Origin: Microbotryum violaceum
Taxonomy: Eukaryota
Length of the DNA: 64,000 bases
Reading direction: 5' to 3'
NCBI GenBank assembly: GCA_001244265.2
Contig: CDLV01000011.1
Coordinates: forward strand, 1,178,001 to 1,242,000
Positions within the stretch are counted from its first letter, which is position 1. Each line of letters starts with the position of its first letter. A program made the position numbers and the translations under genes. Positions 27,948 through 30,900 of the stretch are shown piece after piece. The notes under the pieces were generated by a model, which saw nothing but the letters and a program-made list of their open reading frames with translations, had not been told where the DNA came from and searched no databases.

Positions 27948-30900
27948 TGTAATACACCCCGTTGGAGTGTACACCTGAGCGATGACGACAAGGATCACAG
28001 GACCAAAGTATGTAGAATTGACACTGGACACTCGTATCAGTCGCTGGTATGACAATGCCTTCTGATCCACCTTGTGCTCACCTGGACACTTGTATCAGTC
28101 GCTGGAGAGAGACTAAGAGTGCCCAGGCGCGCGTCCCCTCTTCCTAAGGCCCAGGCGCACGGGCCTTACACTCTCCACCACCTAAACCAAACTCCCCTCC
28201 CTCCTTACACCCTCCCCTCCTTGCCTTGTCCTCCCCCGCCTTCCCACTCTCCCACTCTTCCAACGCTGCGGTGTCTTCCAGGTGTGAGCATGGCTCCCAT
28301 GTGTTGTCGCTGTCTGCCCACCCCTTCCATTTCACCAAGAACCTCTTCCTTGACCCCTTCCCCTTTTCGTCCACAATCCGTTCTACCTCCCACTCCTCGT
28401 TTCCTTGGACGATAATGGCCGCTGGTTCCGTTGCCTCTCGTCCTGGGAACACCACCCCATTGTTCTTTACCCAGCGTCGGAGCTTGGAGGCGTGGAAGAC
28501 GTTGTGCAACTTGTCCCCCGCCTTGAGCTTCAGCTTGTAATTTGAGGTTTCGGGTTGTGCTGCTAGGACTTCGTAGGGGCCGTCAAACCGGGGAAAGAGT
28601 TTGGCTGACCGTGCTTCCCCATCGGCCTTGTACCGCAGTCGTCAATCCCGCGAGTCGACTAAGACCATGTCGCTAACTGCAAACCCGGGCTCCGGTTTCC
28701 TCGCCTTGTTGCTCTGGTTGGCCTGTCGGATCTTTGCAATTGCCAAATTGTCTCGGGCTTCCGCAACCGCTGCTTCACGTTGTTCCACAATGGATTTGAC
28801 TGCCTGTGACGTGGTTGAGCCCTCCACTGGGGTGATTGGTGTCAGCTCCGGCGTGAACCCAAGTACCACTTCAAATGGCGTCTTCCCCGTCGACCTGTTC
28901 ATACTGGAGTTGATCACAAACTCCACCGTAGCCAAGTGCTTTGACCAGTCATTTTGCCGTCGGTTGACCATTGTTCGCAGGACTTGGATCACGGTCCGAT
29001 TTGTTCGCTCGCTTTGGCCATCCATTTGTGGGTGGAAAGACGTCAATGTTGCCAATTTCGTTCCCAGCTGGCCCATGTACGCTCGCCAGAACTCGCTTGT
29101 GAAGAGCTTGTCGCGGTTGGAGACCAGCACTCGTGGCATGCCGAAGTGTCGATGCCACCCCTCAAAGAACCGGTCCGCCGTGGTAGTCGCGTCGTCCGTC
29201 GTGTGGCAGGGGATGAGGCGAACGTAGCCTGAAAGGCGATCTGTTACCGTAAGCAGTACGTCATTACCATTGCTAGGTACAAGTGGCCCGACAAAGTCTA
29301 GGCCAACTTCCCGCATTGGCCGGTCAGGCACATTCAAATTGTGGATCCGACCGGCAAAACCGGTGCCATGCATCTTCATTGTCTGACAAGCAGCACAGGA
29401 CTCAACGTAATCTTTGCATGCATCCTTCATTTCCGACCAGATAAAGTTGCGGCGTAGGTGTTCATACGTCTTGTGTAGTCCAAAATGGCCTGCGGCATCA
29501 TGCGCGTCATGTAGCGCGTCCTCCCGAAAGTTCCCCGTCTTTGGCAGGAGGATCCGTCCTTCGAACCGTGCGATTCCATTGTCGACTGAGTAGCCTGGTG
29601 TTGAGTCAATGTTCTTGATAGCTTGTTGACATTGCAGGTCCTTGCGGTAACCGTCCCTGAGTTTGCAAAGGAAGGCAAGATCGAGAGTTGCCTCCGCCAG
29701 CACGTTGACATTGTTGCTCGCCTGGCGGCCGGCTGTGGGTTCCTCCGGGAAAGAGTAACAACTCAATGCATCAGCCACTGTGTTCTCTGGACCTCGTACA
29801 TATACAATCTCGAAGTCGTAATCGGCCAGTCGTTCGGTCCATCGAGCTTGTCGTCGTGAAAGGCTTGGTTGCTTCATGAAGCCCGCCAAGGAGTGGTGGT
29901 CTGTGAGGATATTGAATCAAACACCCAAAAGGTCTGCCCGCCAGTGATGAAGGGCGTCCACAATTGCAAGCAATTCCATCTCGTGGGCTGCATAGTTGCC
30001 TTCCGCTGGGTTGTACTGTCGTGACCAATAGCCTGCCGGCATGGCCGTCTGCCATTGCTTTCCTTGACTGAGTGCCGCCCCAATTCCCCGATTGCTCGTG
30101 TCCGTCATCAGCCATAATGGGTCGCCCTTGTCGGAATGGTCAATGGGATGTAGAGAAGGAAGGTTGCCCACCAAGGACTTGATTGCCTCAAACGCCTGGT
30201 CGTGCTCTCCCGTCCAGCCTTCGTCGACATGCACCCCTTTCCGTGTCAGCGGGACTAAAACCGCCGTCAAATCCGCAAGCTTGTCGATGAACTTCCGCAG
30301 ATACTGCACCAGACCTAGGAATCCCCGCAATTGCTTCACCGTCCTTGGTCGCGGCCACTGTTGGATCCGCTCCACCTTGTCAGGATCGACCTTGATGCCT
30401 TCCTGAGTGATCTGGTGGCCGAGGAAAAAGCACTCGGCAGCAAACAGTTCCGTCTTCTTCGGCAATACGTACAGATCCGCCCGTCTCAGCGCCTCCAGGA
30501 CTAGTCGCACCCGTCGTTATGTTCCTCCAAGGTGTCGGCAAAGATTGTGATGTCATCGAGGTACACGAAACACACGCTCCCGATAAGGTCTCCGAGTGCC
30601 TCGTTGACTCGGCGCTGATGCGTTGCCGGGGCGTTGCAGAGTCCCATTGGCATTACCGTCCACTCGTACAATCCCCACGGTGTCACAATTGCCGTCTTCC
30701 GGATGTCTTCCTCGGCCATCTTGGTTTGGAAGAAGGAGTTTGTCATGTCGATCTTCCCCCAGAATCGCGCGTTTGAGCAGACCGACAGAATCTCGTCCGG
30801 AAGTGGTAGAGGTGTGCGATCTCGGACCGTCCCTTCGTTGAGTACTCGGTAGTCACAGACCATGCGTGGTTGGATTGACGGGTCCTTATCTATACCTTTC

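Follow-up and report, generated by a model that had tools for sequence, protein, structure and literature searches.

A possible leader intron within the LTRs of Microbotryum retrotransposons, with a unit number that may drift by repeat slippage

A chromovirus with LTRs of unequal length

We analyzed 64,000 nucleotides of Microbotryum violaceum DNA (the window), which contain a gypsy retrotransposon on the minus strand (element A), a third copy of its LTR (copy B), and copia elements and LTRs that we used for comparison (C1, C1b, and C2; Table 1). Minus-strand frames from the interior of element A carry the Pfam domains RVP_2, RVT_1, RT_RNaseH_2, Integrase_H2C2, SH3_Tf2-1, and Chromo, in chromovirus order. 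Given its LTRs, its TSD, and this predicted domain order, element A is a Ty3/gypsy chromovirus. One public DNA-type run (X1) includes a contig that joins position 27942 to position 32991, which is the empty site of the element. Downstream of the 5' LTR are a C, nine Ts, and then CACACCGG. On reading the sequence beside the 5' LTR, we found neither a tRNA-type primer-binding site nor a Tf1-like self-priming complement, and there are no tRNA genes in the window for comparison with the primer-binding site.

Table 1. Features of element A, its LTR unit, and the copia LTRs, in window coordinates. A slash within a motif marks a unit boundary.
Feature	Position	Strand	Details
Gypsy element A	27948-32990	-	LTR at each end; 5-bp TSD GTTCT
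3' LTR of element A, long form	27948-28170	-	223 bp; TG..CA ends
5' LTR of element A, short form W-X-Z	32826-32990	-	165 bp; TG..CA ends; single X at 32902-32925
TSD GTTCT, upstream copy	32991-32995	-	Sequence reading; empty-site contig with 5 shared letters
TSD GTTCT, downstream copy	27943-27947	-	Sequence reading
Interior of element A	28171-32825	-	gag, protease, RT, RNase H, integrase, chromodomain; broken frames
PPT-like purine-rich tract	28171-28182	-	GGTGGTGGAGAG, abutting the 3' LTR; by reading
X1, first 24-nt repeat ("exon" copy)	28082-28105	-	CCA start after CT-rich ...TCTCTCT; CAG end
Y, unique 34 nt	28048-28081	-	Donor-like start GTGAGCAC; begins GTGAGC
X2, second 24-nt repeat	28024-28047	-	CTGAT 13 nt before terminal CAG
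GT..AG unit, 58 nt (Y+X2)	28024-28081	-	Subject of the sequence-only reading
Z, last 76 nt of LTR	27948-28023	-	Begins TGTCAA; no GT after the final CAG
Third LTR copy (B), long form	35546-35768	-	Unit at 35622-35679
Candidate gag/protease intron	31593-31707	-	GTACGC..CTGAC..CAG or AAG; 110 or 115 nt; joints in runs X16 and X17, sequence, and frames
Copia C1b element	18190-22864	-	TSD CGACC; comparison
C1b 5' LTR	22591-22864	-	No unit
C1b 3' LTR	18190-18604	-	I_a (18279-18346) and one I_b
Copia C2 element	9894-15671	-	TSD GGAGA; comparison
C2 5' LTR	15204-15671	-	Three X' = two 69-nt units
C2 3' LTR	9894-10294	-	Two X' = one unit
Copia C1 3' LTR	2702-3266	+	X'', I_a (3030-3099), I_b, I_b; all junctions GAGCAG/GT
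Copia C1 5' LTR	6743-7303	-	X'', I_a (6904-6973), I_b, I_b, then primer-binding site

The two LTRs of element A differ in length by exactly 58 bp. Read on the minus strand, the long LTR has the structure W-X1-Y-X2-Z, with segments of 65, 24, 34, 24, and 76 nt, and X1 differs from X2 at 1 of 24 positions. An earlier reading of this DNA (the sequence-only reading) had described a 58-nt GT-AG unit, made up of Y and X2, whose 3' part copies the exon upstream of it. We find this unit exactly as described. It is in the 3' LTR and in copy B, and it is precisely missing from the 5' LTR, as that reading also had it. With the 58 nt removed, the 3' LTR has 2 or 3 mismatches to the 5' LTR over 165 positions, according to the X that is retained. 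Copy B and the 3' LTR differ at 10 of 223 positions, and both copies of X in copy B have an identical C>T change. Two of the three LTR copies in the window have the long form. The LTR of this Microbotryum chromovirus regularly includes the 58-bp unit, and the 223-bp form is the usual one.

Contigs from four public sequencing runs were compared with these LTRs. None of the listed runs is on record as RNA, the RNA type of four of them being a guess, and contig depth cannot rank the parts of a gene. Among the contigs listed, those that span Y come from two of the four runs (223 nt in run X1 and 152 nt in run X12). The 223-nt contig matches the long LTR from end to end except for two letters, one of which makes repeat X1 identical to X2. 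Run X16 shows depth at two spots within or adjacent to Y. Among the contigs listed from the four runs, none has a joint that skips 28024-28081 and none bridges the W-X-Z junction of the short form (32901/32902); contigs drop rare variants, and we draw no inference from either result. Also, spliced RNA of the unit would equal the short DNA form.

The lack of a listed contig across the W-X-Z junction would fit an assembly artefact, in which the 5' LTR was collapsed between the 24-bp repeats and element A really has two long LTRs. But a 24-bp repeat is below the usual assembly word size, and the two further differences between the LTRs imply that the 5' LTR is not a simple copy of the 3' LTR. Two other elements in the window have the same type of inequality (see below). 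We consider an artefact very unlikely.

Intron-like signals in the unit

The sequence-only reading had likened the unit to a short fungal GT-AG intron, and the anatomy is complete: a CAG/GTGAGC donor, a CTGAT whose position would suit a branch site, and a CAG acceptor. Both copies of X end in CAG. The sense strand of the unit is known from the predicted open reading frames of the element.

To set a chance level, we drew 200,000 synthetic X-Y-X constructs from the window. A GT..AG phase was present in 10% of these, and 0.14% (~0.0014) combined this phase with GTRNGY, YAG, and a CTNAY 8-45 nt upstream. Nulls of the same type across the three LTR families were 0.0014, 0.006, and 0.008, for signals that were specified post hoc, with the data already seen, and that only three of seven host introns fit. 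The putative intron anatomy is unlikely by chance.

The seven host introns, which were predicted from Microbotryum proteins, have looser donors than the search pattern (GTACGT, GTCAGT, GTGAGC, and GTTGAG), and their branches are mostly CTGAC. One of them starts with GTGAGC, as the unit does. The host introns are ~65-150 nt long in this small sample (n = 7), versus 58 nt for the unit.

When we scanned the window, full intron-like phases were found only in the copia LTR arrays, and only on the sense strand of the element. (The gypsy unit was read directly, because the scan breaks its repeat in two at the X1/X2 mismatch.) No array has a good donor at its final junction, which is followed by TG, TT, GC, or the primer-binding site. 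The copia C1 arrays also contain the strong motifs GGTGAGT and GGTAAGT, which are on the antisense strand with no GT..AG of unit length, and we did not count them.

Related units in copia LTRs

The copia unit I_a is a unique sequence of 68-70 nt with three copies in the window. Three blocks are conserved in all three copies, namely 11 nt at the donor, a branch-like 10 nt, and 7 nt at the acceptor, while the middle is variable. Just 9-12 nt of exon are duplicated. The gypsy unit and I_a share CAG/GTGAGCAC, and the 11-mer CAGGTGAGCAC of gypsy Y is also found in an I_a unit.

In the gypsy, C1, and C2 families alike, the repeated X begins with CA right after a CT-rich tract. This CA could be the transcription start in all three.

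The sequence-only reading went further and proposed that gypsy and copia share one design. Part of this stands, as both copia LTR families have intron-like units on the sense strand. The AG/GT of C2 does not help the proposal, because it is simply the final A of the LTR followed by the GGT that opens the primer-binding site. The linker of C1 I_b resembles the first bases after X'', and the linker of C2 starts like the primer-binding site. The AG/GT of C2 is thus trivial, and simple duplication of R would produce a linker like that of C1 I_b; some of the shared design could therefore have arisen without splicing.

Unit numbers differ within single insertions

Three elements in the window have both LTRs and flanking TSDs, and in all three the number of units differs between the 5' and the 3' LTR: 0 and 1 in the gypsy element, 0 and 2 in C1b, and 2 and 1 in C2. 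The inequalities in C1b and C2 involve 141 bp and ~69 bp, respectively. We rejected recombination between two elements as the source of the unequal LTRs because the TSD is intact. Direct repeats of 10-64 nt bound every unit. The long gypsy LTR has a copy of the 24-bp X at either side of the indel, and one X is left in the short LTR; the copia units follow the same pattern with repeats of 52-64 bp. Because all three insertions have unequal numbers, the changes appear to postdate first-strand transfer, as slippage between direct repeats would give. Retroviral reverse transcriptase deletes sequence between repeats, according to passages of PMC3678115 and PMC3187697. The short 5' LTR of element A is best explained by a deletion between the 24-bp repeats, made either by reverse transcriptase or by slippage in the chromosome.

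These numbers bear on a model from the sequence-only reading, in which the intron regenerates itself. Transcription would start at X1 and the leader would be spliced to X-Z. Minus-strand strong-stop DNA would then land on X2-Z of the unspliced 3' end and recopy Y and X1. Landing on X1 would lose the unit, and misaligned landing of unspliced copies would expand the array. The model is mechanistically coherent if transcription starts at the first base of X, and the CA that follows the CT-rich tract in all three families is consistent with this, as is intron-like anatomy beyond chance. There is also an engineered precedent, the split-intron vectors, whose 3' LTR supplies a splice donor that is copied to the 5' LTR during reverse transcription, and an intron results (passages of PMC3182074).

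A first-strand transfer model predicts equal LTRs in each insertion, and none of the three TSD-flanked elements is concordant (0/1, 0/2, and 2/1). Thus, the states of loss, retention, and expansion that had been offered as signs of splicing were produced by another process, and appear to have been made later, by slippage. The model also predicts that copies of X stay alike, by retemplating of X2 from X1, and this did hold up: changes are mostly shared within one LTR. In C2 copy 9317, all six lineage-specific changes are common to both copies of X', while its linker Y' is old; both differences in copia C1 are common to all three copies of X''; and the X copies of gypsy copy B have one shared change and one single change. 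But repeated unequal slippage in a short array would give concerted evolution equally well. Also, the 9-12 nt exon repeat of I_a would be a poor landing pad. We think self-regeneration is unlikely. The broader form of the proposal, a leader intron in the LTRs of both superfamilies that is rebuilt through an exon-copy 3' end when strong-stop DNA from spliced RNA lands in the unspliced 3' copy, seems to us just as improbable.

Could the units have arisen with no intron at all? They might be strand-transfer duplications, made by reverse transcriptase, of the LTR near the start site (R, or R and a few bases), with slippage changing their number. The splice-like signals would then be due to chance or would have some other role, for instance as a second start site or as a U1 site that controls premature polyadenylation. 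The instability of unit number within all three insertions fits this account. The boundaries fit as well, since X begins at a plausible RNA 5' end, and so do the C1 I_b and C2 linkers and the AG/GT of C2. Passages of two papers support such other roles: BARE starts transcription at two sites, and the resulting RNAs have different fates (PMC3735527), and U1 binding at a copia donor controls termination (PMC5580714). What this account leaves unexplained is the full set of donor, branch, and acceptor, in phase and on the sense strand in three families (the nulls given above). Nor does it explain why both unique inserts, gypsy Y and copia I_a, start with CAG/GTGAGCAC, why precisely the three blocks that would be intron signals are conserved in I_a while its middle drifts, or why good donors are missing from the terminal junctions. 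We consider it somewhat unlikely.

A candidate intron in the gag/protease region

Element A has another candidate intron, in the gag/protease region. The joints that point to it are from two runs of one study (X16 and X17), with sides of only 20-28 letters and without a DNA run of that organism. The candidate includes the active-site codons of the protease, and its removal would end the Gag frame at once. If it is real, then the RNA that is copied must keep it unspliced, as it holds the active-site codons. In that case, self-regeneration of the LTR unit might not be needed, because the element would already propagate from RNA that is unspliced at this site.

Discussion

Reverse transcription of spliced RNA erases introns, so how a retroelement could retain one is a real question. 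The question is sharper in basidiomycetes, in which introns can be required for gene expression (passages of a Cryptococcus review, PMC5851062).

The reading that we favor, tentatively but as one that could well be right, is that the LTRs carry a probable leader intron whose copy number drifts by repeat slippage. The unit of element A would most likely be a short spliceosomal intron within the LTR, with its last 24 nt repeating the 24 nt in front of it. From its place just downstream of the CT-rich tract and CA, it is probably in the transcribed leader (R/U5). The family would keep the unit because the RNA that is reverse transcribed is unspliced. This single old copy would have lost the unit from its 5' LTR by a deletion between the 24-bp repeats, after first-strand transfer, and not by splicing. 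We suggest two routes for the deletion. Reverse transcriptase may have switched templates while copying DNA; if this happened in plus-strand strong-stop DNA, it would give precisely this pairing of a short 5' LTR with a long 3' LTR. Alternatively, there may have been slippage or repair in the chromosome. As to the position of the unit, it could also lie in U3.

If the LTR units are spliced, then they would be natural introns that reside within the LTR, in gypsy and copia elements alike, and they would offer a direct handle on how RNA is divided between translation and replication. If self-regeneration is true as well, then an element could rely on splicing to be expressed in a host that depends on introns and still keep its own intron through retrotransposition. 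And if the units are not spliced, the repeat number of the LTR near the start site still changes within single insertions, which affects LTR-based dating and the definition of families. We found no description of introns inside fungal LTRs in the literature that we searched, including excerpts from the Microbotryum papers PMC5381629 and PMC4469406; supplementary annotations of transposons were outside the scope of this search.

Comparison with known systems

Template switching by reverse transcriptase and replication slippage, as described in the passages of PMC3678115 and PMC3187697 cited above, resemble what we see in element A: the indel is bounded by repeats, one copy is kept, and the number goes both up and down. 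These processes account for the presence or absence of the unit, but not for its intron-like signals.

Split-intron retroviral vectors (PMC3182074, in part) are similar in that reverse transcription assembles an intron as it copies the LTR. Unlike the Microbotryum units, these vectors are man-made, their acceptor is downstream of the packaging signal and not in the LTR, and they have no exon-repeat landing site. Their aim is to splice out the packaging signal.

The intron-like anatomy is closer to that of introns born by duplication of AGGT segments or by repeat expansion, in which the upstream exon recurs in the 3' part of the intron, AG/GT forms the junction, and splicing brings back the original RNA (passages of PMC3265369, PMC4974935, and PMC2395259; those of PMC2395259 concern such births in Cryptococcus). 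This mode of birth closely matches the copia I_b and C2 units. In contrast, only 24 of the 58 nt of the gypsy unit are duplicated, and 34 nt are unique. Also, the AGGT-duplication introns are in host genes, whereas the Microbotryum units are candidate introns in transposon LTRs.

The persistence of an intron in a retrotransposon has precedents among plants. In the Ty1/copia element EVD and its relatives, and in BARE1, the host splices the element's RNA to yield a Gag-only form, reverse transcription uses the unspliced RNA as its template, and the intron persists in the family (passages of PMC5580714 and PMC3735527). The alternative intron of the plant copia elements is centered on the protease domain (PMC5580714, in part), and the candidate gag/protease intron of element A is placed likewise. 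The LTR unit differs from the plant introns described in these passages: it is wholly within the LTR, in a non-coding putative leader, it repeats the sequence that precedes it, and its splicing is putative. The setting differs as well, with a basidiomycete as the host and a Ty3/gypsy chromovirus as the element.

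The LTRs of a gypsy element differ by one 58-bp unit

Element A is an old Ty3/gypsy chromovirus. Its interior matches the Pfam families for protease, reverse transcriptase (RT), RNase H, the integrase zinc domain, the Tf2-type SH3 domain and the chromodomain, in broken frames. The LTRs have TG..CA ends, and a 5-bp target duplication flanks both sides. A contig from one DNA-type public run contains the empty site: it joins 27942 to 32991, with 5 letters shared. The host is Microbotryum. The product of a gene next to the element matches an M. lychnidis-dioicae protein at 100% identity over the aligned part.

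The 3' LTR (223 bp) consists of the segments W(65)-X1(24)-Y(34)-X2(24)-Z(76), where X is a repeat and Y is unique, and the 5' LTR (165 bp) is W-X-Z. The sequence-only reading had described a 58-nt GT-AG unit that is missing from the 5' LTR and present in another LTR copy (copy B). We confirmed both points: the lengths differ by exactly 58 bp (28081-28024), and copy B has the long form, differing from the 3' LTR of element A at 10 of 223 positions. Y begins with GTGAGC, directly after the terminal CAG of X1. CTGAT lies inside X, 13 nt ahead of its last CAG, and Z begins with TG.

Copy B is part of a ~430-bp 3' fragment of the element A family (35546-35975: chromodomain, purine tract and LTR). 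The fragment abuts the integrase of another gypsy element (35976-40100), one without nucleotide similarity to element A. This is a chimera or else a nested insertion that was truncated.

Table. Features in the window
Feature	Position	Strand	Details
Gypsy element A	27948-32990	minus	TSD GTTCT; units: 5' LTR 0, 3' LTR 1
Copia C1b element	18190-22864	minus	TSD CGACC; units: 5' LTR 0, 3' LTR 2 (I_a + I_b, 141 bp); nested within a C2 copy
Copia C2 element	9894-15671	minus	TSD GGAGA; units: 5' LTR 2, 3' LTR 1
Gypsy LTR copy B	35546-35768		long form
Solo C1b LTR	12373-12739		TSD TCCAT; within the C2 element; I_a missing
C1b LTR	22591-22864		I_a missing
I_a copy	3030-3099	plus	C1/C1b LTR
I_a copy	6904-6973	minus	C1/C1b LTR
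I_a copy	18279-18346	minus	C1/C1b LTR
Candidate gag/protease intron	31593-31707	minus	element A
Inverted repeat	52008-54586		arms ~800 bp at 99% identity, and another 374 bp; no Pfam match on its frames

As a null, we made 200000 synthetic X-Y-X constructs of the gypsy-unit design from the sequence of the window. Some GT..AG phase occurred in 10% of them. GTRNGY and YAG, together with CTNAY 8-45 nt upstream, accompanied the phase in 0.14%; these signals were picked after the data were seen, and host donors are looser than GTRNGY. A null two or three times as high would make little difference. Aligning Microbotryum proteins to the window yielded seven host introns of ~65-150 nt, most with CTGAC, whose donors are GTACGT (2), GTCAGT (3), GTGAGC (1) and GTTGAG (1). 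The sequence observation of the 58-bp unit holds, and the pattern is not due to chance. The most likely reading, which we favor tentatively, is that the unit is a leader intron residing within the LTR. That there is no splicing at all is rather unlikely, but it is a serious reading.

None of the public runs listed as containing this sequence is recorded as RNA. We compared four of them as contigs, giving no weight to blanks or depths; the RNA status of runs X16 and X17 is a guess. Run X1 (which is distinct from repeat X1) has a 223-nt contig that is the long LTR except for 2 letters, one of which makes the two repeats identical. A 152-nt contig of run X12 covers Z, X2, Y, and part of repeat X1, and run X16 has depth at two sites in or beside Y.

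Two other observations concern this LTR. Within each long LTR, X1 and X2 differ only by a transition (near 28091 and 35690), and one and the same CpG is hit in both: CG>CA in element A and CG>TG in copy B. These changes fit the CpG/TCG hypermutation described for Microbotryum repeats in PMC5381629 and PMC4469406. Also, CCAGCGAC, the first 8 nt of X, recurs in the leader at ~32772-32779 (minus), ~46 nt 3' of the 5' LTR; this may be chance or an additional pairing or landing site.

Copia LTRs carry similar units, some of them explicable by duplication

We oriented the copia LTRs by the strand of the gag-pol frames and by GGTTATGAGCCC directly 3' of each 5' LTR, which we take to be the primer-binding site for an initiator-tRNA half. 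In C2 (sense = minus), a 52-nt repeat (X') stands at the LTR end in one to three copies with a 17-nt linker between them, and the resulting 69-nt unit has the form GTATGC..CTGAC..ATAG. In C1 and C1b, all junctions are GAGCAG/GT in the sense orientation. In 3 of 5 LTR copies, the unit directly after a 64-nt repeat (X'') is I_a, a unique sequence of 68-70 nt. Zero to two I_b units, each a GTGTGT linker plus an X'' copy, follow X'' or I_a.

Three stretches are conserved among the three I_a copies, around a variable middle: GTGAGCACTAC at the start (11 nt), GGTAACTTAC (10 nt) and TGAGCAG at the end (7 nt). Introns are conserved in this way. CAG/GTGAGCAC is common to I_a and gypsy Y. In the best-kept I_a copy, 8 nt at one end are complementary to the other end. 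The strong GGTGAGT and GGTAAGT motifs in C1 were discounted, as they lie on the antisense strand.

A window-wide scan of all exact repeats (period 40-130) found intron-like phases only in copia LTR arrays, and only on the sense strand. The gypsy unit was read directly, since a single X1/X2 mismatch breaks its repeat. In all three families, X starts with CA directly after a CT-rich tract, and a start site may be located here.

The C2 LTR ends in CTCATA and the primer-binding site begins with GGT, so AG/GT is a by-product of their joint duplication. The C1 I_b linker is similar to the first bases following the last X'', and it resembles what plain duplication of R and a few bases would give. On this basis, errors of reverse transcription seem to have produced the copia arrays themselves. 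The proposal that copia and gypsy share one design thus stands only in part: both copia families have intron-like units on the sense strand, but the C2 AG/GT and C1 I_b are explicable by duplication. Gypsy Y+X2 and copia I_a, the two units that contain unique sequence, are the strongest candidates for introns.

Slippage explains the unequal LTRs better than regeneration

We found three elements in the window that retain both LTRs and an intact TSD, and in all three the LTRs are unequal in unit number. In standard reverse transcription, first-strand-transfer events reach both LTRs, and only later steps or chromosomal events make the LTRs differ. It had been proposed that the intron regenerates itself, with strong-stop DNA from a spliced 5' copy annealing to the second X of an unspliced 3' end. 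This mechanism is coherent, but it acts at first-strand transfer and therefore does not produce the state of element A. Equal LTRs within an insertion was its one prediction testable in the window, and it failed. The same 3/3 inequality undercuts the use of loss, retention and expansion states as evidence of regeneration; slippage between the repeats that flank each unit explains them better. In element A, we attribute the loss of the unit from the 5' LTR to direct-repeat slippage after first-strand transfer. If the template switches during plus-strand strong-stop DNA synthesis, the outcome is precisely a 5' LTR that is short and a 3' LTR that is long. Deletion between repeats is a known behavior of retroviral RT (PMC3678115, PMC3187697).

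The X copies within an LTR do share lineage-specific changes. In C2 copy 9317, whose linker is homologous to those of other copies and therefore old, 6 of 6 such changes are common to its X' copies. Between two C1 LTRs, both differences are common to all three X''; in gypsy copy B, one change is in both X copies and one is in a single copy. Re-templating of X2 from X1 would give this sharing, and so would unequal slippage that recurs in an array of two or three units. We consider a self-regenerating intron improbable.

A candidate gag/protease intron in element A

Joints from 31590 to 31706 and from 31597 to 31708 occur in runs X16 and X17, which belong to one study and are RNA only by guess. 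The DNA-like runs X1 and X12, which are not from the same organism, lack these joints; the sides of the joints are short (20-28 letters). They correspond to a candidate intron with a single donor and two acceptors 5 nt apart (sense GTACGC..CTGAC..AAG or CAG, 115 or 110 nt). The joints could instead reflect a DNA variant. If they are real, removal of the candidate intron deletes the protease active-site codons and the Gag frame stops within 0-6 codons, so the spliced product would be a Gag-only mRNA. The element A family would then have been copied from RNA that was unspliced at this site, and therefore an LTR intron could persist without a special device.

Other joints were seen in this element. 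Contigs of runs X16 and X17 join 28479 to 31990, skipping 3510 nt of the interior, which suggests an internally deleted derivative in the runs' organism. One run X17 contig skips 58 nt (31297-31354) with GT..AG on the plus strand, antisense to element A. The skip may reflect an antisense intron or variation in the DNA, and that it is as long as the LTR unit seems to be a coincidence.

Comparison with known systems

A full-text literature search, together with passages of the Microbotryum papers PMC5381629 and PMC4469406, turned up no account of an intron located within a fungal LTR. The nearest known systems are Gag-only splicing of LTR elements, RT deletion between repeats, introns born by duplication (PMC2395259), and engineered split-intron vectors (PMC3182074). 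Plant copia elements and BARE make a Gag-only mRNA by splicing, as described in PMC5580714 and PMC3735527; if the joints are real, the candidate intron of element A would have the same effect.
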